From Kofleriaceae bacterium (GTDB taxonomy: Bacteria > Myxococcota_A > Polyangia > Haliangiales > Haliangiaceae): 64,000 nucleotides of DNA. Where the stretch lies: contig CBDCCZ010000004.1 of NCBI GenBank assembly GCA_965215005.1, forward strand, positions 224,001 to 288,000, read 5' to 3'. The notes beneath the pieces were generated by a model. The model ran no database searches, had not been told where the DNA came from, and saw only the letters and a list, made by a program, of their open reading frames with translations. Made by a program: the position numbers and the translations under genes. Shown here one piece after another: positions 1 to 21,442 of this stretch. Position 1 is the first letter of the stretch, and every line of letters begins with the position of its first letter.

Positions 1-81
1 GCCAATGCCGGCTATGACCGCCACGCCAGTGGCGGACACCGTGCCCCGCATACCACCCCATGGTTTTCGTCGTTCGCTCAT
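1..81 (-). CDS. 5' part of a further Tad-operon gene, truncated by window edge
   Basis: ATG at 81-79 overlaps the TGA of the upstream gene (ATGA); frame open to the edge (MSERRKPWGGMRGTVSATGVAVIAGIG). Confidence 0.55.
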   Translation of the reverse strand, partial: MSERRKPWGGMRGTVSATGVAVIAGIG

Positions 82-824
82 CGGTCATCCTTTCTTGCCT
101 TAGAGGCACGTGGTGCTTTCTCTGCTTCTAGCTCAGCGCGAATCTCGGCGGCGATGGTGTCGTAGAGCTCGCGGCCAGGGCCTTCGAGCTCGCCGCGCTG
201 CTCGCCGGCCATGAGCTCACGAACGAGCTCGTCATCGACTTGCTGGTTGATTCGCTCGTCGACCTCGAGGTCTGCGTCACCGTCGAGCTCGTCGTCTTCA
301 TCGAAGCTTCGAGCGGCGACTGCCCCAGGCAGCGACGGGCGGCTCGGCGTCATGCAGCGGGTGATGTCTTGATAGCGCCGCGCCTCATCGAGGCAGCGCA
401 TCAGCGCCTCGGGCATGGCTTGGGCGCGAGCGCAGAATCGCTCGCCGAATCCGTCGAGGACGGTTTCAGTGTCGATGGCGGTCATCGCTTTGGCCTGCTC
501 GAGCGAGGCCGCCAGTGCTGCCCGCTCACGTGCCGGCTGCGCAGCAATCATTCGCTCGAGCTCGCCGATGTCGTCGGTGTCTTCCTCTTGCAGTCGCTTG
601 GCAAGCGTCTGCAGCCGCGCTCGGCAGCGCGCGTTGCGGTCGTCGATTGCCACTGCCGGGGGTGCGCTGGCCACGCGCGGATCATCGACGGCTCGCAGCG
701 CAGGCGTTGGTGCCACGGCAGGCCGCGAAGCCGGCGCGCTCGCCGCCGTCGTCTGCGCCGGCTCCGGCGCCTCGCTCCGGCACGCAGACGGCACCAGCAG
801 AATGCATAGCAGCAGGTGTTTCAT
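78..824 (-). CDS. Hypothetical lipoprotein in Tad operon
   Basis: Signal peptide with lipobox-like PSA-C, Pro/Ala linker, acidic helical C-terminus; ATGA overlap with upstream ATPase gene. Confidence 0.75.
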   Translation of the reverse strand: MKHLLLCILLVPSACRSEAPEPAQTTAASAPASRPAVAPTPALRAVDDPRVASAPPAVAIDDRNARCRARLQTLAKRLQEEDTDDIGELERMIAAQPARERAALAASLEQAKAMTAIDTETVLDGFGERFCARAQAMPEALMRCLDEARRYQDITRCMTPSRPSLPGAVAARSFDEDDELDGDADLEVDERINQQVDDELVRELMAGEQRGELEGPGRELYDTIAAEIRAELEAEKAPRASKARKDDR

Positions 825-1933
825 CGGCTGAGCTCCTCGGGATGCAGGCGATGCGCTGCTTCGATCACCGCCGGCGGTAAGCGCACGCCGCTGGTGAGCA
901 GCGCTTCGGTGCAGCTCGGCAGCAGGCCGGTTGGCTCAAAGACACTGCCGTGATCGGTCCAGCGGCGGCGAAACAAGTCGCGAAACCGATAGCCTTTGCC
1001 TTCGTCGTAGCCGCAGACCTCGGAGATTCCGGTCACGCAGCGAAATCCTTCGCTGGTGCGCCCGCTGTGAACCACGACGTCGATCGCCGAGGCGACCTGC
1101 GAGCGGAGTGCGTACAACGGCAGACGGACGTCGCTCATGAGCGCCATGGTCTCGAGCCGATTGACGGTGTCGAGGGTATGGGTGGCGTGCACCGTAGACA
1201 TGCAGCCGCCATGGCCGGAGGTCATCGCTTGGATGAGGTCGAGCGACTCGCCGCCGCGGATCTCGCCCACGACGATGCGATCGGGCCGCAGCCGCAACGT
1301 TGCGCGGAACAAATCGCGGATGGTGACGATGCCGCGCCCACGCTCATCGCCGGGTTGCGCTTCTAAATGCACCACGTGGGTTTGCTGGAGCTGGAGCTCT
1401 CGCGAGTCTTCGATGACCACGATGCGCTCGCTCGGCGCAGCGAACGATGACAGCGCGTTGAGGAGAGACGTTTTTCCCGAGGCGGTTCCGCCGGCGACGA
1501 TGATGTTTTGCTTGGCGAGCACCAACGCGCGCAGTGTTTCCGCGGCATCGCGGGTGAGCGAGCCGAGCTCAATCAGTCGCTCGATGGTGAGCGTGTTGCG
1601 GAAGAACCGGCGAATCGCGATGTTGGGACCATCGGGGGCGGCCGGTGGAATGATGGCTTCGACGCGGGAGCCATCGGGCAGATGCGCCTCGAGGATCGGC
1701 CGCTGCTCATCGAAGTGCCGGCCGACGTATTGCGCCAGATTCCGCAGCGCCGCGAGCAGCTGCTCACGCCCGGCGAAGCGAACGGGAACCCGCTCGATGC
1801 GTCCGGCGCGCTCGACGTAGACCAAGTCGGGGCCATTGATCATCACCTCGGCAACCGTGTCGTCTTCCAAATACGGCCGGATCGGCCCAAAGAAGCCAAG
1901 CAGCGTTTCCTCGAAGATCTCGCGTGGAATCAT
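821..1933 (-). CDS. cpaF: CpaF/TadA family pilus ATPase (second, short paralog)
   Basis: Walker A GGTASGKT, Asp box IEDSRELQL, RPDRIVVGEIRG, His box GHGGCMSTVHA, EVMING motif. Confidence 0.93.
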   Translation of the reverse strand: MIPREIFEETLLGFFGPIRPYLEDDTVAEVMINGPDLVYVERAGRIERVPVRFAGREQLLAALRNLAQYVGRHFDEQRPILEAHLPDGSRVEAIIPPAAPDGPNIAIRRFFRNTLTIERLIELGSLTRDAAETLRALVLAKQNIIVAGGTASGKTSLLNALSSFAAPSERIVVIEDSRELQLQQTHVVHLEAQPGDERGRGIVTIRDLFRATLRLRPDRIVVGEIRGGESLDLIQAMTSGHGGCMSTVHATHTLDTVNRLETMALMSDVRLPLYALRSQVASAIDVVVHSGRTSEGFRCVTGISEVCGYDEGKGYRFRDLFRRRWTDHGSVFEPTGLLPSCTEALLTSGVRLPPAVIEAAHRLHPEELSR

Positions 1934-2496
1934 GGTTGCCTCCGCTCGTCGCGTTCATCGGCTCGCTGCCGCGCTAAGTAACGACGCGCTTCCTTGGCGC
2001 GTTCGCCTTCGGGTTCGCGCCGCAAATAGGCGCGGAAGTAGCGTTTGGTGCGCTTGGCATCGCCTTCGCCGTCGCGAGCAGCCAGCGCCAATAGGTAGTA
2101 CGGCGCAGCGACGCTCGGTCGCTCTTGGATCAGGATCGAGAGCTGCTCCTCGGCGCGTCGATATTGCTCCAGAGCCAAATGCAGCGTGGCGATCAAATAG
2201 CGCAATCGCCAGTCGTCTGGCGCGTCGAGAAGGCGGGCCCGAGCGTGGAGCAGCGCTGCCTCATAGCGCTCGGCGTCGAGGCACAGGATGATCAGCTGCT
2301 GGAACGTGTGCTCGGGTCGATAGCCGCCGGCGAGCGCCAGCGCCAGATACTGCTCGCCCCGGACCGAGTCGCCGCGTTGAGCGGCGGTGATGCCGCGCTC
2401 ATAGAACTCGGCGCTGGAGGTTTGAGGCGCCGCAGGCGGGGGCGCATGCGCAGCGCATCCTGCGAGTAGCAGCACGGCGATGGAAATAGCCCTCAT
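1930..2496 (-). CDS. TPR lipoprotein (TadD/pilotin-like)
   Basis: Start reassigned to ATG 2496 (ATGA overlap); MRAISIAVLLLAG-C lipobox; TPR-like helices. Confidence 0.75.
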   Translation of the reverse strand: MRAISIAVLLLAGCAAHAPPPAAPQTSSAEFYERGITAAQRGDSVRGEQYLALALAGGYRPEHTFQQLIILCLDAERYEAALLHARARLLDAPDDWRLRYLIATLHLALEQYRRAEEQLSILIQERPSVAAPYYLLALAARDGEGDAKRTKRYFRAYLRREPEGERAKEARRYLARQRADERDERRQP

Positions 2497-3365
2497 AAGG
2501 TGTTTTGCTCCTTCTTCGCGGCTTCTTCGCGCGTCTGCGCGTAGCGCTCGAGCTGCACCAACCAGCTCTGATAGGAGCCGCCGACATGGGCTACGAACCG
2601 CTGCATTTGGCGCGAGGCACTCATTACTCGCTTCCATTGCTTGGTGTCGCGTAGGTGCTCGAGCTCCATTCGCTGCAGCAGATAGTCATCGGCAATGCGT
2701 GCTTCGAGCTCCTCGCGCGCCATTCCGGTGCGCTTGGCTGCGTCACTGTCGTTGGCGGCTAGATAGCAGCGCTCGGCCGCGTGCAGCATCGAAACCGCGC
2801 CAATGCCATCCTCTACGGAAAATAGATAGCGTTCCGCCTTGGCGCGACCACGCTGTTCGAGATCGCGGCCGCGATCGACCGCATGCTCGGGATCGGGACA
2901 TTGCGCCGGCAGCGATTCGAATAGCGCCGGTGGTGGAGCGTCGGTGCTCGGTACCTCATCTTGCTCATCGCCGAGTAGCATCGCGGCCGAGCCCATCACT
3001 AAGAGCACGGTGAAGAGCAGCTGGCGGTTCTTCTTGTTGCCCTTGCGCGAGCGAGCTTCGGCCGCCGGCGCCTGCTCGCGCAGCCGCAGGCAAATCGAGC
3101 CAACGTCGATCTCGCTGCCCCAAGGAATGAGCTCATTGGCCAAGACGCGACCGATCAAGGTCGGCGCGACCGGCGCATCCCGCGCCGGCGACACCCACAC
3201 CCCCGCCCGTCGCGGTGCCAGCAAGAGGTGCATCGGCGCGATCTCAGGAGCCTCTTTGATGACTACGTCGGCGCTCGGCGAGCTGCCCACGACCACGTGT
3301 GCCCCTTCAGGCTCGTAGCTGCGGGTTTGGCCATTTGCGAGGATGAGCTCGATGAACATCGACAT
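2493..3365 (-). CDS. Membrane protein with N-terminal degenerate FHA-like domain and helical C-terminal domain
   Basis: VVVGSSPSADVVI..EIAPMHLLL FHA-like pattern; central TM segment LLFTVLLVMGSAAMLL. Confidence 0.7.
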   Translation of the reverse strand: MSMFIELILANGQTRSYEPEGAHVVVGSSPSADVVIKEAPEIAPMHLLLAPRRAGVWVSPARDAPVAPTLIGRVLANELIPWGSEIDVGSICLRLREQAPAAEARSRKGNKKNRQLLFTVLLVMGSAAMLLGDEQDEVPSTDAPPPALFESLPAQCPDPEHAVDRGRDLEQRGRAKAERYLFSVEDGIGAVSMLHAAERCYLAANDSDAAKRTGMAREELEARIADDYLLQRMELEHLRDTKQWKRVMSASRQMQRFVAHVGGSYQSWLVQLERYAQTREEAAKKEQNTL

Positions 3366-3373
3366 CTCCGTAG

Positions 3374-4267
3374 CTAGAGCCCCATGCTCTGGGTGCGTAG
3401 AATTAGCGGACCGGCGATGATGACGAAGGTGGCCAGCAGCAGCAGCGTGAGCGGAATGAGCATCTTCATCGCCGCCTTCACCGCCGCCTCTTCGGCGTGC
3501 AAGCTGGCGCGCGCGCGCATCATCTCGGCCTGAATCGCCAACACGTCGCGTAGCGGCGTGCCCTTGTCTTCGGACTGCATCACTGCAGCGGAAAAGTCGC
3601 GGACGGCTTCGAGCGGGACGCGCTCGGCCAAAAGGCGCAGCGCTGCAGCACGGCTGTGGCCGAGCTCCATGCGGCGCAGCATCAGCCCCAGCTCTTCGCG
3701 CATTGGCGCCTCACGAGTCGGCCAGCGTGCGATTACATCGGCGACCGCGGCGGTGAAGGTCATGCCGGCGCTCATCGCCAGCGAGATGATGTCGATGGTG
3801 ATCGGCAAGTCGCGCTTGATCTCGCGCCGACGCGTCGCCGTTGCATCGATGATGAGGTTGTAGGGCATGAAGACGCCGACAATGGCGAACACGGCGATCA
3901 CGAACATCGGCACGCTACCGGTTGCGACCAGTGCCATGCCGAAGGCGGCGCCGAAGAACGCGCCTAACAAGCACGAGGCAAACCACTCGTCTGCAGATAG
4001 ACCTAAGTGATCGCCGGCTTGCACCAGACGCTGCTGCGCGCGGCGACGCATGCCTCCGAGCGGCAGGTGGGCAATCCAGCTGGCGATCTTGCGGATGACC
4101 GGCTCGAGGGTGCGAAACATGCCGCGTTCTTGCATCGCGCGATGCCGCTTATAACCGCGCAGCCCGAGGTCGGGCGCCGGCAGCACCACGGACTGTCCCA
4201 GCGCGAGAGCCGTGAAGGCCAGCGAGCTAGCGACGAGCAGGATTCCAGCGTATGCGAGCGCTTCCAT
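3374..4267 (-). CDS. tadC: TadC / type II secretion system F family platform protein
   Basis: TM segments, LPITIDIISLAMSAGMTF, QSEDKGTPLRDVL, KMLIPL; position after tadB. Confidence 0.88.
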   Translation of the reverse strand: MEALAYAGILLVASSLAFTALALGQSVVLPAPDLGLRGYKRHRAMQERGMFRTLEPVIRKIASWIAHLPLGGMRRRAQQRLVQAGDHLGLSADEWFASCLLGAFFGAAFGMALVATGSVPMFVIAVFAIVGVFMPYNLIIDATATRRREIKRDLPITIDIISLAMSAGMTFTAAVADVIARWPTREAPMREELGLMLRRMELGHSRAAALRLLAERVPLEAVRDFSAAVMQSEDKGTPLRDVLAIQAEMMRARASLHAEEAAVKAAMKMLIPLTLLLLATFVIIAGPLILRTQSMGL

Positions 4268-4274
4268 GGGTTCC

Positions 4275-5129
4275 TTAGAAGTCCACGTCGAGAATGTTGC
4301 GCGCCATGATCAGCGACATCACCCAGGCGCAGCCGGCCAGCGCCATGAGACCGTAGCCAACGCTGCCGGACTCGAGCATTGGCTCGAAGTAGGTCGGGTC
4401 CATCTTGTTGAGGAAATAGATCAGCAGCGGCGGTCCCAGCGCCAAGCAGATGAGCTGCATGCGCGCCATGGCCGTTTGCTTGCGCAACACCGCCTGCAGG
4501 CGGAGAATCTCGCGCAGTGACGCAGCCGTCTTCTTGAGCAGAGACGGCAGCTCACCGCCGGTTTCGCGGCCAATCAAAATGATGGTGACCACCGAGCCGA
4601 ATAGATTCGAGCCGATGCGGTTGCCCATCGCCCGCAACGCCTCTTCCATGGGCGCGCCGATGCGCAGCTCTTTCACCAGTCGATCGAGCTCACGGCCGAG
4701 GTGACCGCGGGTGAGGTCGGCGGTGTAGCGGAACGCTTCCGGTAGCGAGCCGGTCACCGCCAGCATGTTGGCCATCATCAACAGCCAGCTGTTTAGCTGC
4801 TCCTCGATGAGCTTGACGCGCCGCTTGCGCTGGAACGCCAGCCACAGGCGTGGGCCGATGATGCCAAGCGGGATGAACACCAGCAGTCGCAGGTCGACGT
4901 AGTAGCCGAGCACCGCACCGCCGACGATGGCCGCCAGCTGCGCCAACGCCATGTCGGTGCCACGGGCATCGAGCGTGAGTGCTTGCGCCGAGTCGTTCAA
5001 GCCGCCGGTGTAGCGTCCCCACAGCCGACCCACGCCGCCGCGCTGGCGGGTCGCCGCGTAGGAGGCGACGCCGAGCCCCGCGGCAAGCACCGCCGCACCC
5101 ACGTACGCCACCAGATCGATCTGGTTCAT
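4275..5129 (-). CDS. tadB: TadB / T2SS-F family platform protein
   Basis: EEQL..LLMMANML..GSLPEA, RETGGELPSLL motif; position after cpaF. Confidence 0.88.
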   Translation of the reverse strand: MNQIDLVAYVGAAVLAAGLGVASYAATRQRGGVGRLWGRYTGGLNDSAQALTLDARGTDMALAQLAAIVGGAVLGYYVDLRLLVFIPLGIIGPRLWLAFQRKRRVKLIEEQLNSWLLMMANMLAVTGSLPEAFRYTADLTRGHLGRELDRLVKELRIGAPMEEALRAMGNRIGSNLFGSVVTIILIGRETGGELPSLLKKTAASLREILRLQAVLRKQTAMARMQLICLALGPPLLIYFLNKMDPTYFEPMLESGSVGYGLMALAGCAWVMSLIMARNILDVDF

Positions 5130-6733
5130 AACGCCGGCTCCCCGGGCCGCACGAGGCCCATCGTGTAGAAATCCCCCAGATAGCTCGGCAGGTGACCAGA
5201 AGCGTAGAATTCGCCTTTCACCTCGCCATTGGGACCGGTTGAGGTTCGGCGAAATCCGAAGATCTCCCGCACCTGAATCTCGCCATCGTCATCGAGAGCG
5301 ATGACCTCAGAGACGCCGGTGATGCGTCGCGAGCCATCCGACATCCGCGATTGCTGCACGATCACGTCGATGGAGCCGGCGATTTGCTCGCGGATGGCGC
5401 GCGCCGGAATATCGACCCCGGCCATGAGGGCGAGCGTCTCGATGCGCTTCATCGCCTCGCGCGGGCTGTTGGCGTGGGTGGTGGTGAGCGAGCCATCGTG
5501 GCCGGTGTTCATCGCCTGGAGCATGTCTAGCGCTTCGGCGCCACGACACTCGCCGACGATGATGCGGTCGGGTCGCATACGCATCGCGTTCTTCACCAAA
5601 TCGCGAATGGTGATCTCACCGCGGCCCTCCATGTTGGGCGGTCGACTCTCGAGCGAGACCACGTGCGCCTGGCGGAGTTGGAGCTCAGCGGCATCTTCGA
5701 TGGTGACGATGCGCTCGCGCTCGGGAATCGCGCTCGAAAGGATGTTCAGCAGCGTCGTCTTGCCGCTGCCGGTGCCGCCCGACACCAAGATGTTCTTCTT
5801 TGCGAGCACCGAGCGCGACAGAAAACGCATGATCGCCGGCGTGACGCTGCCAAAGCGAACCAAGTCCTCGGCGGTGAGGGGGGTGTCGCTGAATTTTCGA
5901 ATCGTGACGCAGGCGCCGCGAATCGCGAGCGGTCGAATCACTGCATTGACGCGCGAGCCATCGGGCAGGCGCGCATCGAGCATTGGCGCCGATTCATCGA
6001 TGCGCCGGCCCAGAGGCGCGACGATTCGCTCGATGATGGCCCGGACCGACTCCTCATCGGTGAAGCGACTGCCCGTGAGCTCGATACGACCGCGGCGCTC
6101 GACGTAGATGGTGTGCGGATCGACCACCATGATCTCACTCACCTCGGGCATCGCGAGCAGATCTTCCAGCGGCCCGAGGCCGATCGCTTCGTGGGTGAGC
6201 TCTTCGACCAAGCGCTCGGCATCGGTGCCGACCGGCAGCTGAACGCGGTAGCGAGCAACGATGTGTTTGAGAGCAACTTCGACTTTGGCGCGCAGCAGGT
6301 GGTCGTTCATGCGGCTGCGCTCGAGGCGCACCAAGTCGAGGTGATCGAGGAGCTCGCGGTGGATCGCTCGGCGTGCGGCAACCCCGACATCGCTGTTCTG
6401 CGACGTGGGAGCTCCAGCGACGAGCTGTAAACGGAGTCGAAACGGGCCGATGACGATGGGCGCGGCGGGATCGAGGGCTACGGTGTCGCCAACGATGGCG
6501 CGTGAGCCAACCACAGTGCCTATGCCAGATAGATCGGTGAGCCGCAGCTGCTCGCCGTGGAGCTCGAGGCGCGCGTGAGTGGCAGCAACCTCGGACGAAT
6601 CGAGGCAGAGCTCGCAGCTCGAGTCGCGGCCGATCGTGATTGCCTGCGAAAACGGCCCCACCTCGCGAACCGGAGTCCCTGGTCCGTGTACGAACAGGCG
6701 AATCGCGAGGTTCTTACGCGCCGGAGCGGTCAT
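5126..6733 (-). CDS. cpaF: CpaF/TadA ATPase with N-terminal FHA-like domain
   Basis: ITIGRDSSCEL..THARL N-terminus; GLGPLE, RRIDESAPMLDARLPDGSRVN, GGTGSGKT, RMRPDRIIVGECRG, GHDGSLTTTHANS. Confidence 0.95.
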   Translation of the reverse strand: MTAPARKNLAIRLFVHGPGTPVREVGPFSQAITIGRDSSCELCLDSSEVAATHARLELHGEQLRLTDLSGIGTVVGSRAIVGDTVALDPAAPIVIGPFRLRLQLVAGAPTSQNSDVGVAARRAIHRELLDHLDLVRLERSRMNDHLLRAKVEVALKHIVARYRVQLPVGTDAERLVEELTHEAIGLGPLEDLLAMPEVSEIMVVDPHTIYVERRGRIELTGSRFTDEESVRAIIERIVAPLGRRIDESAPMLDARLPDGSRVNAVIRPLAIRGACVTIRKFSDTPLTAEDLVRFGSVTPAIMRFLSRSVLAKKNILVSGGTGSGKTTLLNILSSAIPERERIVTIEDAAELQLRQAHVVSLESRPPNMEGRGEITIRDLVKNAMRMRPDRIIVGECRGAEALDMLQAMNTGHDGSLTTTHANSPREAMKRIETLALMAGVDIPARAIREQIAGSIDVIVQQSRMSDGSRRITGVSEVIALDDDGEIQVREIFGFRRTSTGPNGEVKGEFYASGHLPSYLGDFYTMGLVRPGEPAL

Positions 6734-7887
6734 CGCGTCTCCCTGGTTCTGGCGCGGCGCGAGGGCGCCGGCTTGGCGGCGGGCGCCGGCTTGGCGGCGG
6801 CCGGGCGCGCTTCGCGAGCGCTATCGTCGCCGAGCGAGTCGAGGAGCCGAGGACCTCCCGGCTCGTCGTAACCACGATAGACGTTAAAGGCTTCGCGAAC
6901 GCGATCGCGAACCTCGAGCGGCAAGGCGCCGACCATACTCGGCACCACGAAGACAACGTTTTGAATGTTCTCTTCGCGCTTGCTCTTGATGCCGAACAGG
7001 TAGCCGAGTACCGGAATGTCGCTGAGCAGCCAGATTCCGGTTTGGGAGTCGCTGACCTCGTCGGCATAGAGCCCCGCGAGTGCCAGCGACTGGCCGAGCT
7101 CCAGGTTGACGACGGTATTGACGTTGGAGGTCGTACGGCCGGGCAAGCCGTCGGTGCTTGCTGCGGTCAAGCTTGCGACCTCGGCTTTGATGGTGAGCTC
7201 GATGCGGCCGGTGGCGTCGTCGTAGATGGCGCGGGTGGAGATGCTGGTGCCAAACGGGATCTTCTCGATGCCTACCGCCAGGCCGCTGCCGACGCGAAAG
7301 TTGCTCTCGCCGCCGCTCTCGTAGCTGCCTTCGCCGCCGTTGGCGACGACGACCCGCGCGTGCCGCATGATCTTGGCCCAGCCGCGATCACGCGCAAAAT
7401 CGAGGCGCGGCAGGATCTCGCTCTGCACGGTCACGCGGGTGCGATCGGGCGCCGCTGAATCGGTGACGAAGTCAGTGGAGACGCGCGCATCGAGGGAGGT
7501 TGGCAAGCTAAGGCCGAGCTGGCGCCCGTAACCATTCGAGAGCTGCACGAAATAGAAGTCGAGGCGGATGTTGCGGCGGGCGCGAATGCGCGAGACGGTG
7601 ATGCGGTAGGGAATCTTGCGGCCGTCTTGCATGATGATGAGCATCGAGGTCGTGCCCGGCGACAGCCCCAAGATCACCACTTCCCGTTGATCCTCGGTAA
7701 CCCGCACATCGGCGATGCCAGGTGCGCCCATGGAGATGGTGTCGATGCCCTCGCCATTGATGGATTTCTGGCCTCCCGGCTCGAGCTGTATCTCGCGCTC
7801 GTTCTGTGCAGGCGCCGGAGCTGACCACACGAGCGCCAACATCAGTATCCATGCCACCCGCCGCACCGCCCGAAGCGGAGCGCTCAA
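6730..7887 (-). CDS. cpaC: Tad secretin (RcpA/CpaC family)
   Basis: Signal peptide, pilus N-terminal domain (IADV..G.SPGTTS), secretin motifs GQSLALAGL and LSDIPVLGYLF. Confidence 0.88.
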   Translation of the reverse strand: MSAPLRAVRRVAWILMLALVWSAPAPAQNEREIQLEPGGQKSINGEGIDTISMGAPGIADVRVTEDQREVVILGLSPGTTSMLIIMQDGRKIPYRITVSRIRARRNIRLDFYFVQLSNGYGRQLGLSLPTSLDARVSTDFVTDSAAPDRTRVTVQSEILPRLDFARDRGWAKIMRHARVVVANGGEGSYESGGESNFRVGSGLAVGIEKIPFGTSISTRAIYDDATGRIELTIKAEVASLTAASTDGLPGRTTSNVNTVVNLELGQSLALAGLYADEVSDSQTGIWLLSDIPVLGYLFGIKSKREENIQNVVFVVPSMVGALPLEVRDRVREAFNVYRGYDEPGGPRLLDSLGDDSAREARPAAAKPAPAAKPAPSRRARTRETR

Positions 7888-8810: not shown

Positions 8811-8817
8811 GCGTCTC

Positions 8818-9807
8818 CTACGGCGCGAGCTCGCGGGCCCGCGCGATCATTCGTTCGAAGTGGCCAGCGTCATCGGCGACGATGGCGGTAGCGATGCGGC
8901 CTTGATGCTCGAACAACACCACGAAGGCCATCGCACCATTGCGAGTCACGAGCAGTGAGGTCTCGGTGCTGTTTAGCTTCTCGCTGGCGTTCCAGCTCAC
9001 CTGCCAGCCGTGGGCGACGAGCAGTTTTTCGTAACCCTGGCGCTGCGCGGCAAGAGAGCCGTTGGCGCCGGTGTAGAGCGTCATGCCGTAGGAGGTGCCC
9101 TTCTCGAACACCGACAGCACTCGATTCGAGCCTTGCGGGCGCGGCAGTGCGGTGGCATCGGCGCCTGGCACATCACCGGCGATGGGAAACATTTGATCGA
9201 CGTCCATGTCCGCGGCATAGAGGCCAGCGAAGTGGGTGCGATCGCCGCGGCGCTCGGCGTAGACGTAGCGAAATCCGCCCAAGGCGCCGACGTCGCCATC
9301 GCGCAAGAACTGCTGAATCGCGGCGAGTGACTCACTCGGGCTCGACAGATCCACGCCGGTGAGGACGCAGGTGGCGAAGCCGCGGTCGCCATCTTGCGCG
9401 ATGAGCGAACGACCTGGAGGTGGCTCGCCATCGAACAGCGGCGCCAGCCTTTCATCACTGCCGGCGCCATCGCAGCGCGCCGCAAACGAGCTCAGCAGCG
9501 TCTCCACCGCATCGTCGGTGGTGCCAGTGGACAACAGAATCTCAGCGCCGTTGAATGAAACGGTGCGCGGCAGCTCTTGCGTGATCGCCCCCTGATACGC
9601 CAATAGGCGGGTTCCGAGGGTGAAGCTGCCTTCGTAGGCATGCGCGGCGATGGGCCCGCGAAGGCCGTGGACGGTGAGCGCGGCAGCCGCGAGAATGGTG
9701 AGGGCAAGTGCTGCCTTGCGCAGCGACTGCAAGGCTTGCGCGGCAAGCTGCCGCGGCGGCGGCAATTCTCCGCGTCGCCAGCGAAATAATAGCCGAATCA
9801 AGGACAC
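8818..9807 (-). CDS. Hypothetical membrane-anchored protein in Tad operon
   Basis: Long ORF between pseudopilin and cpaB, overlapping upstream stop; N-terminal hydrophobic segment; start uncertain. Confidence 0.75.
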   Translation of the reverse strand: MSLIRLLFRWRRGELPPPRQLAAQALQSLRKAALALTILAAAALTVHGLRGPIAAHAYEGSFTLGTRLLAYQGAITQELPRTVSFNGAEILLSTGTTDDAVETLLSSFAARCDGAGSDERLAPLFDGEPPPGRSLIAQDGDRGFATCVLTGVDLSSPSESLAAIQQFLRDGDVGALGGFRYVYAERRGDRTHFAGLYAADMDVDQMFPIAGDVPGADATALPRPQGSNRVLSVFEKGTSYGMTLYTGANGSLAAQRQGYEKLLVAHGWQVSWNASEKLNSTETSLLVTRNGAMAFVVLFEHQGRIATAIVADDAGHFERMIARARELAP

Positions 9808-10331
9808 CAGCTACCTCCGTACCAGCGCGACGGCATCAGTGCCTCGCAGATCGGGCGGAACAGGATCGGAAACGTCCAGTCGGCCTTGCGCGCGTTGCAC
9901 ATCATCGCGTGCTGACCGCCGACCTCGACGCTGCCGCCGAACAGCGCGGGGCGCGGAACACGCGCCTTGCGTCGCATTTCGAACGTTTGCCCATGTAGCG
10001 ATGCAAGCTCGGGCGCCAGGATGGGAATCCGCTGCGCGATGGTGTCGAACTTGCCAGCGGCAGCAGCGCGTAGCGCGCCGTCGCTCATCACCGTCGGTCC
10101 TTGCTGCTGAACATCGCACTGCGGCGGCAGCTGCTCGCAACCGCTCGTGGCGTAGAACCACGCGCAGCTGCGGATGCGCTCTTGGTTCTCCAGCTCGACC
10201 ACGTTGAAGCCGGCGACGTACATGCCGAGCAGCCACAGCGACACGAACACCGGAAACACCACCAGCATCTCGATGAACAGCGACCCGCGCTGCTCCGAGA
10301 AGATCGACTTATAAGTCCTGCGCGTGCGCAT
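9798..10331 (-). CDS. TadE-like minor pilin
   Basis: Class III signal QRG|SLFIE with Glu5, hydrophobic helix, several Cys. Confidence 0.8.
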   Translation of the reverse strand: MRTRRTYKSIFSEQRGSLFIEMLVVFPVFVSLWLLGMYVAGFNVVELENQERIRSCAWFYATSGCEQLPPQCDVQQQGPTVMSDGALRAAAAGKFDTIAQRIPILAPELASLHGQTFEMRRKARVPRPALFGGSVEVGGQHAMMCNARKADWTFPILFRPICEALMPSRWYGGSWCP

Positions 10332-10332
10332 A

Positions 10333-11529
10333 TCAGTGAACGATCAGCTCCTCACTGCGCTCGATGGCATCGCGGATGTCGGCGCACGAGACGCCGGTGC
10401 CGCTGTTTGCGCACTCGCGGCTCATCACGTCCGGCGTGGTCTCACGGAACCGCCGGAATCGCGCGCGCCACTGCATTTGCCACAGCATCTGTGCCTGCTC
10501 GGCGTTGCCATCGAAGTAGTACTCGGCCTGCGCAAATCCAACTCGGCTGAGAATCTTGCGCAGCGCCGCGGTGCGGCCGCCGTTCTCGTTGCGCCCCCAC
10601 GCAGCCAGCCGCACCGCGCGATCGAGGTCGTCGCCGATGGTCTCGCCCACCGCGTAGAAGCGCAGTTGATAGGGCTCGCTGCCGAGCGGATCGGTGACGC
10701 GACGGCCGGGCACCTGCGCCAAGCACGCCGGCCAAAACCGCTCGCGCGCGACCTTCCAGGCTTTCTCGCGGGGCCACGGCCCGATCCCGATCGGCGTCCA
10801 AACCTTGAGGTAGGGCGAGTGCCAGACGGTGGGAATCGTGTCGGTTTCCCACGCCTGCTTCTTTAGGATCGGACGGGTGCTGATCCGACCCCACAGCGAC
10901 GCATCGGGCTCGACGCGCGCGCAGAACTCTTCAATCGGCTCGTCCTCGGTTGGCGTCTTGCCTTTCGGCACCAAGAAGCCGCCTTCGATGCCGTCTCGCT
11001 GCGCGGCCAGACCCGCTGCTTGCGCTTCGGCGAGCTGGCCGAGCTGATTCTCAATCGCGCTTTGCGCGCGGTCGGTGGCCTCCATGGTGTCGGTGAGAGC
11101 CGAGCCGTTGGCCAACACCGCGGCTTCGATACCGATCACGGCCAGCGGAAGCCGCATCGGCCCCCACAGGATGCGTCGCAGCTTGCGTTTGATTCGGCAG
11201 ATAAAGTTAAAGCCGCAGACTTTCGCGAGCTTGCGGTTGATGTAGTCGATGGTCTCGACAGCCGCCCATGCCACCGCCGCCATCGATGCCACCAGTGCAA
11301 CCGTGGCGAGCTTGACGATGTTGAGCAGTGCCAGAAGGTTCATGCCGCGGGCATGCATCACCGCGGCGGCGTAGGCTCCGGTGTCAGAGGCATCGCGCAG
11401 TCGGTCACCATGGCGAATCGCTTCGCCGATCCCGGTTAGGTAATAGAGGACGCCAACGAGCAGCAGCGAGACGAAGATCGTCATGATCAACACCGCGCCG
11501 CGCGTATCGCGCGAAAGCTCAGTACGCAT
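10333..11529 (-). CDS. TadG-like large minor pilin / tip protein
   Basis: Start reassigned to ATG 11529; TRG|AVLIM prepilin signal, DASDTGAYAAA motif. Confidence 0.75.
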   Translation of the reverse strand: MRTELSRDTRGAVLIMTIFVSLLLVGVLYYLTGIGEAIRHGDRLRDASDTGAYAAAVMHARGMNLLALLNIVKLATVALVASMAAVAWAAVETIDYINRKLAKVCGFNFICRIKRKLRRILWGPMRLPLAVIGIEAAVLANGSALTDTMEATDRAQSAIENQLGQLAEAQAAGLAAQRDGIEGGFLVPKGKTPTEDEPIEEFCARVEPDASLWGRISTRPILKKQAWETDTIPTVWHSPYLKVWTPIGIGPWPREKAWKVARERFWPACLAQVPGRRVTDPLGSEPYQLRFYAVGETIGDDLDRAVRLAAWGRNENGGRTAALRKILSRVGFAQAEYYFDGNAEQAQMLWQMQWRARFRRFRETTPDVMSRECANSGTGVSCADIRDAIERSEELIVH

Positions 11530-12115
11530 AGCTCGCCCCCTGGTTTGGCAGCGCGGCCTCGTCGGTGAGCAGCAAGTGGCCCGCGCCGCCCCGCCATCTG
11601 CACATGATGCGGCGGGCGATGGGGACGACGCAGCGAAACCGATATTCGACCGCGACCTTGACCGTATCGCCCGGGCCGAAGCGGCCGCTGGCGCCGGGAA
11701 AGGTGATGCGGACGCGATCTTGTAGATCACGCGCCGGCGCGAGCAAGCCAGGCAGCGGCGTATTGGGTTGAGGCGCCGCAACCGCGTTGTAGAGGGTGTA
11801 GAGGCCGGGAACCTGCGCCGGGCTGCAGGTGGCTACGAGGGCAACGGCAGCGGCTTTCTCGATCGCCGCGAAGCGCTGGTTGCCCGAGGAGACATCGCCG
11901 CGCTCGGCACCGCCGTAAAACTGCGGATCGTCGTCGAGCACCACGACAGCGGCGCGCACCGCCGCAGATGCAGCGTGCGCAATCCCGAGCTTGCCGACGT
12001 ACGCGAGTGCCGACTGAGCGACACAGAACGTGAAGATCAGGAACAGCGGAGCGACGATGAGGAGCTCGACGAGCAGCGAGCCCCTCTGGTCGCGATATGC
12101 GGTGCGGCTATTCAC
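11519..12115 (-). CDS. tadE: TadE family minor pilin
   Basis: GTG start at 12115 (GTGA overlap); QRG|SLLVE, HAASAAVRAA, V.V.VEYRF motifs. Confidence 0.85.
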   Translation of the reverse strand: MNSRTAYRDQRGSLLVELLIVAPLFLIFTFCVAQSALAYVGKLGIAHAASAAVRAAVVVLDDDPQFYGGAERGDVSSGNQRFAAIEKAAAVALVATCSPAQVPGLYTLYNAVAAPQPNTPLPGLLAPARDLQDRVRITFPGASGRFGPGDTVKVAVEYRFRCVVPIARRIMCRWRGGAGHLLLTDEAALPNQGASYAY

Positions 12116-12612
12116 ACCATCCACAACGCCAATAGGCTGCCGACCAAGATCGACGGCCCGAGGCGCATTTCGGTCATTTCGGTCCGCGCGACCGGTTTGC
12201 GACGCGAGCGCGGCATGACCAGGTTTAGGGTTACTCGACCCATGTTCGCGAATGCCTGCCCGAGGCGCCGTTCGCGAGCCAGCCAAACGATCGCCCACGC
12301 CGCGCTCACGAGCAGGCTCATCACCAGCATCTCCATGCCCAGCGAGACGCCGTGCAGCGCGCCGAGCGCCGCAAACAGCTTGACGTCCCCGCCGCCCATC
12401 CCATCCATGCGGAACATCAGGTAGGGCACGAGCCCGACTCCGATGATCCCCAAGACGCTGAAGATCAGCCCTTGTGACCCGTGCTGCCACCAAAACAGCA
12501 CCGGTGCCAATGCGATAGCAGGCAAGGTGAGCCAGTTGGGAATCTCACCGCGCCGCCAGTCGGTAAAGGCAGCGACGCTCACGAGGACGATCGTTGTGAC
12601 TAGCACCCACAT
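12112..12612 (-). CDS. cpaA: Prepilin peptidase, A24 family (CpaA/TadV)
   Basis: TDWRRGEIPNWLT and MGGGDVKL catalytic Asp motifs; multiple TMs. Confidence 0.93.
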   Translation of the reverse strand: MWVLVTTIVLVSVAAFTDWRRGEIPNWLTLPAIALAPVLFWWQHGSQGLIFSVLGIIGVGLVPYLMFRMDGMGGGDVKLFAALGALHGVSLGMEMLVMSLLVSAAWAIVWLARERRLGQAFANMGRVTLNLVMPRSRRKPVARTEMTEMRLGPSILVGSLLALWMV

Positions 12613-12623
12613 GAGAATCTTGC

Positions 12624-12866
12624 CTACGGCTCTGACTGCTCGGGGGTCGGCAGCGTGGTCTGCACGCCTTCGATCGCGTTGCCTTCTTCGCCGAACTTGG
12701 CTTTGGTCTTGTCGCCTAGGTACTTGGCGCCAAAGATGACGACGAATACGAAGATGGCGACGATGAGCAGGACCTCGAAGAATTCGATGCCTCGCTGATC
12801 TGCCAGAAGGCTCTTGCGCTTCTGCGCATCGCCGCCGAGAAGAATGTCTTTGATCCGTTGCTTCAT
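12624..12866 (-). CDS. Flp-type pilin (probable major pilin)
   Basis: QRG|IEFFEV signal, hydrophobic helix, short C-terminus, AGGAG RBS. Confidence 0.8.
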   Translation of the reverse strand: MKQRIKDILLGGDAQKRKSLLADQRGIEFFEVLLIVAIFVFVVIFGAKYLGDKTKAKFGEEGNAIEGVQTTLPTPEQSEP

Positions 12867-12936
12867 GACTGAGGGCTCCTAATTGCGTCTCGTGGTTAGC
12901 GGGCCGTTTGCGAGTTCATGGCGATATGTGCAGCTC

Positions 12937-13119
12937 CTAGGGGAACGGCCCAGCGAGAGCAAGCTGCGCATACCGAAACGCGCGCAGGAGCGGAAAGCCG
13001 AGCTGAATCGCAGCGCCGGCGATCGGAAACGCAAAGAACGCCACGATGAGCACGTACTCCACGTAGACCACTCCCCGCGCATCGCGACACGCTGCAGTCC
13101 AATCTTGCTCCTCACGCAC
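12937..13119 (-). CDS. Flp-type pilin
   Basis: ARG|VVYVEY canonical Flp motif followed by hydrophobic helix; first gene of operon. Confidence 0.8.
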   Translation of the reverse strand: MREEQDWTAACRDARGVVYVEYVLIVAFFAFPIAGAAIQLGFPLLRAFRYAQLALAGPFP

Positions 13120-13132
13120 GAGTCACCCCTGG

Positions 13133-13148
13133 TGCAGCACCCGTACCA
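13133..13148 (-). promoter_or_regulatory. Putative sigma54 promoter for Tad operon
   Basis: TGGTACGGGTGCTGCA = GG-N10-GC, resembling TGGCAC-N5-TTGC. Confidence 0.65.
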
Positions 13149-13222
13149 TTGGCTACGCTCGCTGCTAAGCGAGCGGGAACAGTGGAACTGTGTGGCAATC
13201 GGTCCAGTGCGATAAGCGGCTG

Positions 13223-13277
13223 CTTTACACGAACGATCGCTCAGCGGTTTACGTAAAGGTCAGAGTTGATCAATCTG
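13223..13277. promoter_or_regulatory. Putative activator (EBP) binding region
   Basis: AT-rich palindromes TTTACGTAAA (13248-13257) and TTGATCAA (13266-13273), plus CTTTAC half-site, between two divergent sigma54-like promoters. Confidence 0.4.
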
Positions 13278-13333
13278 GTCTAGCCACAAGTCGTGGGAGC
13301 CCCTCATTAAAGGGCTTTGAAGCTTCGCGAAGG

Positions 13334-13349
13334 CGGCACGCGCTTCGCA
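13334..13349 (+). promoter_or_regulatory. Putative sigma54 promoter for divergent FHA gene
   Basis: CGGCACGCGCTTCGCA = GG-N10-GC with GGCACG. Confidence 0.55.
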
Positions 13350-13362
13350 CGGTGAATCGCGC

Positions 13363-14310
13363 GTGAAGCCGCAAAAGGATGAGCTGGCGTGGCCGAGTCA
13401 CTTCGCCGTCGACTCCGATGTCACCGTCGTAGACGGCCTCGGTCCACAGGATCGAGCGTCAACGGCATCCATACTCGCGCTCGAAGCGACGTGCGAGCTG
13501 CAACGTGTCGAGGCGGTGGATGACCGCGGCAATCACTTCTCCGCCGCCCTCGGTCTTCGCGACCGCGCCATCCTCATTGGCTCGTCGGCATCATGTCGTT
13601 GGCGTCTCGAGCAAGATGGTGTCGAAAGTGAGCATTTGGAGCTGGTGTGGGAGCAGGGCGGACTTTGGCTGAACGCGCGAGCGCCGGTTCTGGTCGCTGG
13701 GCGGAGCGTGATCGGCTGGGAGCCGCTGCGCGAGCACGAGGTTGTGCTGGGCTCTGCCAAGCTCACTCTCAATGCTTCGAGTAAGGATGCACTGCCCGAG
13801 GTCCTCGCCGCCGAAGCGCCTAGCACGGCGCCGCAAGCGCCAGGGCTCGATGCCGATCTCGCGGAGCGCTTTGCGTTGCCGCCGGAAGACGAGAACGATG
13901 GCAGCGCCGCGCGGCCACCACTGCTTCGCCGCAAGCTCCTCGGTGCGCCGGTCTCGGCGTGGCTCGTGGTCTCCCTGGCGCTCATCACCGCGGCTTACGC
14001 GCTCACCACTGCCGATTGGCTGGATCGGGTGACTCGACCCCCGCGCGCGGTTCGGGTGCTGCCGACCGAGGTCACCGCCGGCGACGTCGACGCGAAGCCA
14101 ACGACACCGACGCGTGCTGTCGAACGCGCTGAGGTTCGACAAGCGGCCGAGCTGTTGGCGCAGCGCGACTTGGGTGCCGCACTCGCGGCCTATACCGAGC
14201 TCGCCGAAGCCGCCGGCCCGACGAGTCCCTACGCGATCTTTGCAGAGCTGCTCGGCCGTCTCTGCGCACCTGGCACCATGGGAGCTGGACCATGCACCGC
14301 AGCGCCTTGA
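13363..14310 (+). CDS. Membrane protein with degenerate FHA-like domain
   Basis: ILIGSSASCRWRL..GVESEHLEL FHA-like pattern, TM segment, C-terminal TPR-like helix pair. Confidence 0.7.
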   Translation: MKPQKDELAWPSHFAVDSDVTVVDGLGPQDRASTASILALEATCELQRVEAVDDRGNHFSAALGLRDRAILIGSSASCRWRLEQDGVESEHLELVWEQGGLWLNARAPVLVAGRSVIGWEPLREHEVVLGSAKLTLNASSKDALPEVLAAEAPSTAPQAPGLDADLAERFALPPEDENDGSAARPPLLRRKLLGAPVSAWLVVSLALITAAYALTTADWLDRVTRPPRAVRVLPTEVTAGDVDAKPTTPTRAVERAEVRQAAELLAQRDLGAALAAYTELAEAAGPTSPYAIFAELLGRLCAPGTMGAGPCTAAP

Positions 14311-15149
14311 TTCTCCTCGTCCCAACCTTCTTCGCGACCAGCTGCGGCGCGATGAGTCGCGGCGGTACCGAGGCGGTGACCGCAACGTTGGTGGTATCTG
14401 CCGTGCGTGACGACGGCGTTGCCGTCGCGGGGGCCTCAGTATTCGTCGGCGACACGCCGCTCGGCAAGACCAGCGCCGCGGGCGGCTTGGCGCTCGAGCT
14501 CAGCGGCGCCGAGGGCGACCGCTTTGCCATCGGTGCCAGCTGCCCCGATCCGCTGCGACTGGTGGCGCAGTCGCTGCCGGAAATCGTGTTGAGCGAGATC
14601 CGCGGGTATGGCGCCGAGCCAGCGCAGCTCGAGCTAGTGGTGACGTGCCAGCGACCGCGACGCAGCGTGGCGGTGCTGGTGCGTGCGCGCGGTGAGATTC
14701 TCGAGCTCAAGGAGAAGCGCGCCAAACGCCGCGGCAAAGAGCTTCGCACCACCGTCACGGAGGTGGAGGAGCTACCGCTGGTGGATGTATCGGTGTTGCT
14801 CAATGGGCAGCTTTTGGCCAAGACCGACGCCGATGGGCTGGCGCACTTGGCGTTCGAGGTGAGTCCGAGCACGAGCTTCGAGCTCACGCTCGACACCGCC
14901 AGTGCTGGCTACGAGGAGCTCGTTCCGCACAATCCCACGGCAACGTTCGATGTTCGCGAGAGCGACGAGCTGTATGTTTTCGATCAGGTGCTGCGCGATC
15001 GTCGCTATGTTGCCGATCTGCCGCCGGCACCCAAGCCGCGCCGGGTTCGGCGCAGTCGTCCCGACGCAGAGCCGGAGCCGGAGCAGCACCGCATCAAGAT
15101 CCTTCGCGGCGGGATCGATTCCGGCGTGCATACGATGCGGCCGAAATGA
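14292..15149 (+). CDS. Hypothetical lipoprotein with two Ig/PEGA-like beta domains
   Basis: ATS-C lipobox; repeated V.V.G..LGKT motifs (VFVGDTPLGKT, VLLNGQLLAKT). Confidence 0.65.
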   Translation: MHRSALILLVPTFFATSCGAMSRGGTEAVTATLVVSAVRDDGVAVAGASVFVGDTPLGKTSAAGGLALELSGAEGDRFAIGASCPDPLRLVAQSLPEIVLSEIRGYGAEPAQLELVVTCQRPRRSVAVLVRARGEILELKEKRAKRRGKELRTTVTEVEELPLVDVSVLLNGQLLAKTDADGLAHLAFEVSPSTSFELTLDTASAGYEELVPHNPTATFDVRESDELYVFDQVLRDRRYVADLPPAPKPRRVRRSRPDAEPEPEQHRIKILRGGIDSGVHTMRPK

Positions 15150-15160
15150 CCGAAGCGCGG

Positions 15161-16879
15161 CTACTTTCGCGGTCGCGGAATGCCGTAGGCGTCGAGGCGC
15201 TTGGCAAGCGTGACCCGCGAGATGCCGAGCATTCGAGCGGCTTTGGTCTGATTGCCGCCGGTCTCGCGCAGGGCCTCGATGATGCGTTGGCGCGGGTCGT
15301 CGCTGTGCGTCGGGCTATCGGCGATGCCCTCGTAAGGCCGCTGACCGCTGTCGCTGCGGCTGAGACGGTCGAGCGGCAAGTGCTCTTCGCAAATGGGTTG
15401 CTCGCCTGCCAACAGCACCGCGCGCTCGATCGCATTGCGCAGCTCGCGCACATTGCCTGGCCAAGCGTGACTCGCCAGCGCTTGCAGGGCTTCGGGGGTG
15501 AGCGAGGGCTTCGAGGTATGGCCGAGCTCGCGGGCGCACGCGCTCGCGAAGCTGCGCGCCAGCGGCTCGATTTCGCAGACTCGATCGCGCAGCGGCGGGA
15601 CCCAGATAGTGGCCGCTGCGATGCGATAGAACAGATCCTCGCGGAAGGCGCCGCGGGCGACCTCTTCTTCGAGATCGCGATTGGTCGCGGCGACGAAGCG
15701 AACGTCGATCTCCCGCGGCCTCACCGCGCCAACGCGCATGACGGTGCCGTCTTCGAGGCAGCGCAACAGCTTGGCCTGGGCCGACTGCGACAGCTCGCCG
15801 ACCTCGTCGAGGAACACGGTGCCGCCATGCGCCGACTCGAGCAGGCCCGCCTTGGTAGCGTTGGCGCCGGTGAAGGCGCCTTTTTCGTGACCAAACAGCT
15901 CGCTCTCGAGGAGCGTGTGCGAGAACGCGGCGCAGTTGAGGCGCAAGAACGGCTTATCAGCGCGCGGCGACAGCCGGTGAATGGCCTCGGCAACGCTTTC
16001 CTTGCCAACCCCGGTTTCGCCGTGAATGAGCACGCTAATGGTGCCTTTGGCCATCCGACCCGCCAGCCGATACACGTCCTCCATGACGGGATCGGCGACG
16101 ATGACGCCAGTGGAAAGCGAATCAGTGGTGGTAGGCAGCTCGTCGCCAGCGGCCGCATCCATGGCCGGGGAGTGCTCGGCAACGATACGCAACTTTGCAT
16201 CGGCGCGGCTGAAGCGGTCGCGCAGCTCTCGCACCGCCTCGTCCACGGCGGTGAAGGGCGCGCCAACCGACAGTGCCCGAACGTCCCGCGAGCCGAATCG
16301 GGCCACCGCGACGCACGCCGGGATGTGAGGCAGCAGGAGCACGCGGGCGGTATCGAGCTCGAGCGGGCCATCGGTGGCGCGCAGATGAATCACCGTGACG
16401 TCGGCGGCGGCTTCTTCTTCGATGGCAACGCGAGTACGACGCTCGAGCTCGCCGATGGTGACGGTCTCGACGACGTCGGCTTGGCGCGGGCTCAAGCTCA
16501 CTCCGAGCAGCGAGCCGATGCGCAGCAGTTGATCACAGCGCAGAACGCGCGCCTGGCGCGGCTCGAGGCGCTCGCCATCGACCCAGGTGCCGTTGCGGCT
16601 GCCGAGGTCGACGAGGCGAACCTCGTGCTCATCGAAGGTGAGCAAGCAGTGCTGGCGAGACACCGATACATCGGCGAGCGAGACGTCTGCGGCGCTGCCG
16701 CGACCAATGGTGAGCTCGCCGTGCGTCGGCAACGGAATCGTCTGAAGGCCCCAGCGGCGCACGATGGAGAGCGCCGAGGGGCGAACGTCGAACGTCTCGT
16801 CGTTGGCCGCGGCGGCGAGCTCCCCGGGAACGGTGTTGGTGTCCTCGGAGCTACTGAGGCCTTCGCTGGCGCGGCTCAT
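15161..16879 (-). CDS. Sigma54-dependent activator (FHA - degenerate middle domain - AAA+ - Fis HTH)
   Basis: Canonical FHA (GR, SRQH, NGT), GETGVGKE, ESELFGHEKGAFTGA, FLDEVGE, WPGNVRELRN, GNQTKAARMLGISR. Confidence 0.95.
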   Translation of the reverse strand: MSRASEGLSSSEDTNTVPGELAAAANDETFDVRPSALSIVRRWGLQTIPLPTHGELTIGRGSAADVSLADVSVSRQHCLLTFDEHEVRLVDLGSRNGTWVDGERLEPRQARVLRCDQLLRIGSLLGVSLSPRQADVVETVTIGELERRTRVAIEEEAAADVTVIHLRATDGPLELDTARVLLLPHIPACVAVARFGSRDVRALSVGAPFTAVDEAVRELRDRFSRADAKLRIVAEHSPAMDAAAGDELPTTTDSLSTGVIVADPVMEDVYRLAGRMAKGTISVLIHGETGVGKESVAEAIHRLSPRADKPFLRLNCAAFSHTLLESELFGHEKGAFTGANATKAGLLESAHGGTVFLDEVGELSQSAQAKLLRCLEDGTVMRVGAVRPREIDVRFVAATNRDLEEEVARGAFREDLFYRIAAATIWVPPLRDRVCEIEPLARSFASACARELGHTSKPSLTPEALQALASHAWPGNVRELRNAIERAVLLAGEQPICEEHLPLDRLSRSDSGQRPYEGIADSPTHSDDPRQRIIEALRETGGNQTKAARMLGISRVTLAKRLDAYGIPRPRK

Positions 16880-18581: not shown

Positions 18582-18588
18582 GGCAGGG

Positions 18589-18594
18589 AGCCTA
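18589..18594 (-). promoter_or_regulatory. Putative -10 box of leaderless M20 transcript
   Basis: TAGGCT 7 nt before ATG, no SD. Confidence 0.4.
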
Positions 18595-18753
18595 CTTCAG
18601 CGGCGCCCGCCAACCCAGCCTTGCGAGCCCCGTCGAGCAACCTTGTCGGCTACCTCCCGGTCGATCGGGCGGGACCTCGCCGCTTGCCAGATGGTCATGC
18701 GTGACCAACATTTCCTAGCAGCTGCGTATAGTGACCACGTCATGCTGATTCGT

Positions 18754-19089
<336 letters not shown>

Positions 19090-19144
19090 GTCGGCGCAGT
19101 GCGTCGCTCGCGTGGGGGCTCCTGATCACGATCGGTAGGAAACA

Positions 19145-21442
<2,298 letters not shown>

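Follow-up and report, generated by a model that had tools for sequence, protein, structure and literature searches.

Results

The sequence examined here (the window) is a stretch of 64,000 nt from a Kofleriaceae bacterium of the order Haliangiales (GCA_965215005.1, contig CBDCCZ010000004.1, positions 224,001 to 288,000 of the forward strand), at the start of which lies a Tad pilus operon that an initial annotation had likened to the Kil contact-killing apparatus of Myxococcus xanthus. Gene calls and a Pfam scan placed 17 minus-strand genes between position 13119 and a point beyond window base 1, at intergenic distances of -11 to +70 nt and with seven 4-nt overlaps, a count made with a TadE start placed too late; the DNA itself has a GTG at 12115. 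Pfam matches for Flp, CpaA, CpaB, secretin, CpaF, TadB, TadC and TadE-type pilins identify the core as a Tad (type IVc) system. In order of transcription, the operon encodes a second small Flp pilin of 60 amino acids (aa), a candidate KilK/KilO-like adapter (12937..13119); an Flp pilin, likely the major one (12624..12866); the CpaA/TadV prepilin peptidase (12112..12612; PF01478, 3e-18); a TadE minor pilin (11519..12115; PF07811, 9e-5); a TadG/KilN-like large minor pilin, conserved apart from a variable insert (10333..11529), and a conserved TadE/F-like minor pilin with the site RG/SLFIE (9798..10331), both assigned from sequence and without a Pfam match; and a conserved 329-aa accessory protein of no named family and of Myxococcota type (8818..9807), for which the ESM Atlas returned unnamed Myxococcota clusters. 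These are followed by CpaB/RcpC (7884..8810) and a short CpaC/RcpA secretin (6730..7887), both recognized by Pfam; an FHA-CpaF ATPase with intact motor motifs and a degenerate FHA pocket (5126..6733; T2SSE 6e-62, FHA 1e-8); TadB (4275..5129; T2SSF, 5e-15); TadC (3374..4267; T2SSF, 4e-13); a YscD/FHA-fold membrane protein below the Pfam cut-off (2493..3365); a TPR lipoprotein conserved in relatives, a TadD-like pilotin candidate (1930..2496); a second CpaF ATPase without FHA, in which Walker A, Walker B and the His box are present (821..1933); a 248-aa orphan lipoprotein-like protein (78..824); and the 5′ end (1..81) of a 630-aa open reading frame, ORF630, whose start codon overlaps the preceding stop (ATGA). 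The whole ORF630 gene occupies G000:C4:222189-224081 (L198:2189-4081), G000 being the genome of the window. All parts named by the initial annotation were found where it had placed them; its list had omitted the second CpaF, the second pilin and ORF630.

The same gene order recurred in relatives (twice in G015, and in G006, G019, G001, G017, G025, G004, G035, G262, G356 and G340) and in other families, and this recurrence makes the locus more than a chance arrangement. When synteny was compared across relatives, as the initial annotation had proposed, both the accessory genes and their order were conserved. The distribution is patchy, with the second CpaF present in 13 of 125 genomes of the order, spread over 7 of its 22 genera and missing from all 77 genomes of the largest genus. 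The closest named records carry the labels Polyangiales, Polyangiaceae, Polyangia or Deltaproteobacteria, and a gene from the same family belongs to a protein cluster labelled Kofleriaceae, which points to Polyangia and probably to Haliangiales. The locus is a two-ATPase Tad (type IVc) operon, conserved in Polyangia and of a different lineage from KilF. At one related locus (L049:9488-11277) the FHA-CpaF gene is broken into two frames by a frameshift or an assembly error. Tad genes have been reported in predatory Polyangiales (PMC10196010), with none in the Haliangiales sample in the available portion of that paper.

The position behind the second CpaF held a gene with a pilin leader in 7 of the 13 operon-bearing genomes of the order, long-tailed in six and, in G024, a pair of pilin-leader genes interrupted by the contig end. 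Toxin-type Pfam domains occurred in this slot in three genomes (HINT-Ntox16, HINT-Ntox21 and phospholipase D), and both genomes with HINT domains also had immunity-like neighbour genes. In G015 an Flp leader is fused to PT-HINT (5e-28) and Ntox16 (8e-6) and followed by DUF6714, while in G262 the slot holds a series of DUF4279, Flp-HINT-Ntox21 (1e-14), CdiI_N (2e-31), a second Flp-HINT protein (Flp-HINT-X) and DUF6334. G356 has a gene for a small membrane protein of 188 aa followed by Flp-phospholipase D (3e-16), and G006 and G019 each carry a pair of long Flp genes for which Pfam gave no match. Outside the slot, G015 encodes an Flp-HINT-HNH protein followed by DUF4265, as well as Flp-TNT. From their position and family background, DUF4279, DUF4265, DUF6714 and DUF6334 are probably immunity proteins. 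An alignment of 13 such leaders showed the cleavage Gly and two Cys to be invariant. The Flp fusions of the relatives combine a conserved N-terminal module, variable toxin tips and adjoining immunity-like genes, as polymorphic toxins do.

A pilin profile matched all 12 of the other operon-bearing genomes and 1 of the 112 operon-lacking genomes of the order, the single match in the latter (G285) being weak and not prepilin-like. Other long pilins were also seen: L219, L225, L227, L240 and L212 carry Flp leaders joined to Gly-rich tails of beta strands that belong to no Pfam family, two of these genes being followed by PsbP-like genes (weak matches), and in other families the Flp pilins L286, L289, L292 and L213 have a flexible linker and end in a membrane helix. 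Two minor pilin clusters in the window genome are of type IVa-like character (G000:C11:84890-87312 and C58:39758-45469); the first had been examined as a possible further Tad tip cluster, a reading rejected on account of this resemblance.

ORF630 is built of a pilin-like leader (RG/T), a Gly-rich segment, an Ntox16-like Cys/His segment (about residues 170-288) and an alpha/beta hydrolase with the residues S478-D529-H558, and the pattern of 23 matches divides it into three modules. Word-index searches found no full-length relative of ORF630 and no homologue of the 248-aa lipoprotein, returning only the query in each case. The N-terminal module was recovered in eight rows, with leaders such as LFKDRRG and LLKNVAG, and is joined to at least five different C-termini, that of a paralogue on C60 among them, so that the C-terminus has evidently been exchanged. 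Compared by HHalign with an Flp profile built without it, this family gave a probability of 72 (E 3.5e-5, score 26.8), the maximum score in 30 column shuffles being 13.9; with moderate confidence, we regard the leader as a divergent pilin-like leader. In G583, a member of another family, an ORF630-type leader lies behind both the second CpaF and a 306-aa lipoprotein-like gene, the layout of the window, and genes of 188-306 aa occupy the slot of the 248-aa lipoprotein in G356, G006, G019 and G583. The leader was absent from 250 genomes of the class and from 146 other genomes of the order, and was present in 1 of 400. One paralogue with this leader stands alone at C60:35827-37062 (L041); its Cys-rich C-terminus is common to P0021 and P0022, and no small immunity-like gene was called downstream of it.

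With a profile of the middle segment of ORF630, the Ntox16 protein of G015 was the top non-self match among 23,698 open reading frames (E 0.006), and direct BLAST of ORF630 against that toxin gave nothing significant; by this transitive evidence the segment may be called Ntox16-like. The triad S478-D529-H558 was invariant in seven rows, and the C-terminal domain was predicted to adopt an alpha/beta hydrolase fold (predicted local distance difference test, pLDDT, 78); a single-sequence fold of the whole protein (pLDDT 36) was discarded. The best ESM Atlas score, 0.82, was hydrolase-like and serves as a lead only. The domain probably resembles lipases and esterases in general rather than any toxin-specific group.

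The relation to Kil was examined through ATPase trees. Kil comprises two gene clusters and a single FHA-fused ATPase (Seef 2021, PMC8460266), and the first block of the alignment in Figure 7 of that paper has no recognized Polyangia name among its rows. Since no row of the phylum sample combined the KilF motif of Myxococcus with an intact ATPase, KilF-type rows were taken from metagenome loci, where the motif of the M. xanthus row identified 27 loci, 24 of which gave ATPase domains. The anatomy of kil cluster I was clear in 5 of 6 annotated KilF loci, and KilD and beta-propeller genes were present in L171, L179, L184, L185 and L189; both were absent from the window locus, the scope of this comparison, no genome-wide search for KilD having been made. 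FastTree and a 64-row IQ-TREE under LG+G4 were used, the latter with 58 of 173 rows and 6 of 24 KilF rows after flagged long-branch rows had been left out. The six KilF rows formed one clade (92/94) with L032 and four orphan ATPases; the window FHA-CpaF fell within a 19-row clade (100/97) alongside Bradymonas-type rows, and the second CpaFs formed a separate clade (100/100). By the approximately unbiased test, a clade of the window lineage and KilF alone, a group chosen after the tree had been seen, was rejected (p-AU 0.000235); sisterhood of the two wider lineages (p-AU 0.32) and union of both window ATPase lineages (p-AU 0.40) were not rejected. The core ATPase also stood apart from the adhesion-type CpaFs sampled.

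One of the four orphans is an FHA-ATPase of the KilF lineage in the window genome itself (G000:C18:60110-62293, L151), with altered Asp, Walker B and His motifs. The FHA domains of eight KilF proteins compared were 49-72% identical to that of this orphan versus 23-35% to that of the window. Its neighbours are a TPR protein, FHA proteins, a PP2C-like gene and a kinase-like gene, and similar orphans occur in most family members searched. L032 (G036:C3), from a Polyangia-class genome, has a Kil cluster I-like run of Flp, peptidase, secretin, an intact FHA-ATPase and a multi-FHA protein, its ATPase being sister to the degenerate orphans. No needleless type III secretion system (T3SS) was found in the window genome (92.8% complete), since its sole FHIPEP gene lies in a flagellar cluster. 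That cluster (G000:C4:93470-128482, L042) looks complete and includes both L and P rings as well as four flagellin genes, the host being a myxobacterium. A simple motif scan for TadZ/CpaE found no ParA-like motif at the locus. The locus has the FHA-fused ATPase of Kil and lacks KilF orthology, a single ATPase and the two-cluster split. It is Kil-like in build, yet no member of Kil; the resemblance noted initially holds for anatomy and conserved accessory genes, and fails for ATPase lineage and number.

Upstream of the operon, and divergent from it on the plus strand, are genes for an FHA-fold membrane protein (13363..14310), which is below the Pfam cut-off and in some relatives is found after the second CpaF, and for an accessory protein that is exported, conserved in relatives and not assigned to any named family (14292..15149). 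These are followed on the minus strand by a gene for an FHA-sigma54 activator with GAFTGA (15161..16879; Sigma54_activat 3e-66, FHA 6e-18, HTH_8), a candidate regulator. The window has one sigma54 -24/-12-type site in each divergent direction, on the operon side (13134..13148, minus strand) and on the side of the divergent pair (13334..13348, plus strand), each with two mismatches and equalled in 6 and 4 of 300 shuffles, respectively. Among 11 loci, eight had such a site with at most two mismatches no more than 57 nt from the first pilin gene (equalled in 0-11 of 300 shuffles per locus), and the best sites at the other three had 4-6 mismatches. The genome encodes 48 activators, 21 of them FHA-fused. 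For five activators near operons of relatives, one-way best hits placed the window activator first in one case and 31st to 36th in four; a further activator, in G583, had that of the window as its one-way best match and adjoins a small gene with an ORF630-type leader. The suggestion that the system has its own regulator is only partly supported, favoured by the conserved sigma54-type sites and weakened by the 21 FHA-fused activators and by the single match among five neighbours, plus that in G583. Farther into the window, inspection by eye of 17175-21442 and 46148-54943 showed ordinary neighbours, namely genes for an M20 peptidase and ClpA and a run of RecBCD-like genes.

FHA domains bind phosphothreonine through a characteristic motif. 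On inspection, both FHA-like membrane proteins lack the Arg of G-R, and the FHA domain of the window CpaF has A-x-x-H and G-I-G, S-x-x-H being retained in 18 of the 18 orthologues shown. With the Arg missing and the CpaF pocket altered, phosphothreonine binding by three of the four FHA folds at the locus is doubtful. Among 80 named loci, 12 were flagged as having an FHA-CpaF fusion, and seven of these are labelled as outside Myxococcota and Deltaproteobacteria (labels of metagenome-assembled genomes as given). FHA alone is consequently no sign of predation, and its use as a marker of predators was rejected. Of the proposed distinct Tad variant for predation or contact, the separate lineage and conserved accessory genes stand; FHA as an argument for predation does not.

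Discussion

Starting from the observed parts, their conserved order, their position in the tree and the relatives' fusions of pilin leaders to toxin domains beside immunity-like genes, we favour, with about even confidence, a sigma54-driven contact pilus that delivers polymorphic toxins fused to its pilins, whether for competition or for predation. Both divergent promoters would be turned on by a sigma54 activator, which may be the one next to the operon; CpaA would cut the prepilins of Flp, TadE/F/G and the cargo behind the Gly of RG; and FHA-CpaF and the second CpaF would power the pilus, with TadBC, CpaB and the secretin as its path. Cargo pilins would join the pilus via their N-terminal helix, and the toxin would be freed on the target by HINT self-cleavage, with lipases acting at the surface. 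The producer would be shielded by the adjacent small gene or lipoprotein. ORF630 (Ntox16-like and serine hydrolase) and its C60 paralogue would serve as cargo in the window genome, with the 248-aa protein, from its position, a candidate immunity protein or chaperone. In type VI secretion systems (T6SS) an upstream lipoprotein can guard against a lipase effector, and a similar arrangement may hold here. A role in contact-dependent killing is better supported by the pilin-toxin fusions than by the grounds given initially. The more general proposition, that Tad pili constitute an undescribed polymorphic-toxin route, in which the two-motor pilus of these myxobacteria would incorporate Flp pilins with nuclease, RNase, NAD-glycohydrolase-type and lipase tips and let the tips go when it touches a cell, is offered tentatively, as a little short of an even chance.

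Several results weigh against toxin delivery. HINT or toxin-type Pfam domains exceeded the cut-off in 6 of the 24 long pilins scanned from relatives, leaving 18 without. The slot lacked cargo in 6 of the 13 order genomes (G001, G017, G004, G025, G340 and G341, the last with an incomplete locus) and at 12 other loci, a count that excludes L210-L216, and none of 10 class candidates with long frames had a toxin-size tail. The co-occurrence of pilin profile and operon is partly circular because 7 of the 12 matches are to the operon's short pilin only, and the strong long matches are limited to one genus. For ORF630 itself, the protein alone ranked 227 and 823 of 5352 on the pilin profiles, a two-row profile gave a probability of 1.9, the leader lacks Glu+5 and the whole protein lacks a Pfam match. 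Of its homologues, 6 of 20 matched Ntox16, all of them below the cut-off (14.7-22.9 bits versus 25), and Foldseek returned no match for the hydrolase at E<=0.001, the T6SS lipase effector 9cys (rank 2, TM score 0.42) scoring no better than ordinary esterases. ORF630-type hydrolase and Ntox16-like domains also occur on ordinary signal-peptide or lipoprotein N-termini. The failure to find the needleless T3SS in the window genome counts on this side as well.

A rather unlikely alternative, still to be taken seriously, is a Kil-like predation pilus that acts by tip contact alone, with TadE/F/G as the Tip and the second Flp as adapter, the fusions as an addition of this lineage that serves competition, and ORF630 as a passenger secreted enzyme. 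The order TadE-TadG-TadE-(unknown)-CpaB...TadB-TadC-FHA-TPR parallels the locus tags of kil cluster II with the secretin and ATPase of cluster I inserted (the direction of kil transcription being unchecked), and the grouping of the ATPase with Bradymonas-type rows, the many operons without cargo and the Tad genes of predatory Polyangiales (PMC10196010) count in its favour. It fits poorly with the lack of a detectable needleless T3SS, with a KilF-lineage gene that is separate and degenerate, with an operon confined to 13 of the 125 order genomes, and with the reappearance of the ORF630 leader family in the same slot in G583. We consider quite improbable a pilus for adhesion or surface sensing in a flagellated myxobacterium, in which the long pilins would be adhesins or surface enzymes and no killing would occur in the window genome. 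The complete flagellar cluster, the FHA-CpaF fusions outside predators, the 18 of 24 long pilins with no recognized toxin domain and three class examples with linker and membrane-anchor tails accord with it; HINT-nuclease/RNase tips and CdiI-type neighbours within the operon, however, are unexpected for adhesins, and the core ATPase lies apart from the adhesion-type CpaFs sampled. That the locus is the Kil system itself gathered into one cluster (orthologous to MXAN_3102-3108 and 4648-4661) is largely refuted and hardly credible: parts and order are shared and a clade of the wider window and KilF lineages was not rejected, but KilF FHA domains are closer to the C18 orphan, a clade of window and KilF alone was rejected, and the locus has two ATPases and neither KilD nor beta-propeller genes.

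Should toxin delivery by the pilus be correct, polymorphic toxins would have the Tad pilus as a further way out of the cell beside those already known, and Kil-like machines would gain their missing effectors without a T3SS. Flp-toxin fusions with immunity-like neighbours in a Kil-like operon provide directly testable effector-immunity pairs, and the conserved second motor bears on the rule of one bifunctional ATPase per Tad pilus. In the full-text literature, with subscription papers and figures outside the scope, no description of a pilin-toxin fusion on a Tad operon or of a conserved second motor was found beyond one Flp-pilin-ARC fusion, listed in passing (PMC12605009).

Compared with known systems, the locus shares with M. 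xanthus Kil (PMC8460266; Herrou 2025, PMC12075869) the Tad core, FHA-fused ATPase, short secretin, extra FHA and TPR proteins, TadE/F/G trio, extra small Flp and lack of a ParA-like motif in the locus. It differs in having one locus, two ATPases, a TPR lipoprotein and another ATPase/FHA lineage, with no KilD at the locus and no needleless T3SS found, and in the long Flp-leader cargo genes of window-type operons, none being described for Kil in the available text of the two papers. Herrou 2025 describes Tips of the TadEFG type and, with the mode of toxin delivery undecided, suggests needleless T3SS effectors or a toxic Tip. The nearest published lineage is the Bradymonas-type ATPase, L143 agreeing over the first alignment block with the Bradymonas row as published; the Bradymonadales Kil-like cluster DN745_00680-00700 (Seef 2021, supplement 2), known from genes only, has CpaB-CpaC-CpaF-TadB-TadC in a single run like the window, but L143 and L144 lack a second CpaF within the 20 kb read. 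The canonical Tad/Cpa pilus has the same core machine (Caulobacter CpaF, PDB 9e24/8rjf; CpaF match E 2e-115) and a single bifunctional motor plus TadZ (Bdellovibrio, bioRxiv 2026.07.08.737194), whereas the window has FHA parts, cargo pilins, two CpaF genes and no ParA-like motif. With polymorphic toxin systems (Zhang 2012, PMC3482391) the fusions share a conserved N-module, HINT, a variable tip (Ntox16, Ntox21, HNH, TNT or phospholipase D), a small downstream immunity-like gene and tandem arrays; unlike those described, they have as trafficking module an Flp pilin that is associated with a Tad operon, and neither 'Flp' nor 'pilin' occurs in 300,000 of the 357,715 characters of that paper. The locus type is a variant of the Kil-like Tad systems, and the link between pilins and toxins is its new, testable part.

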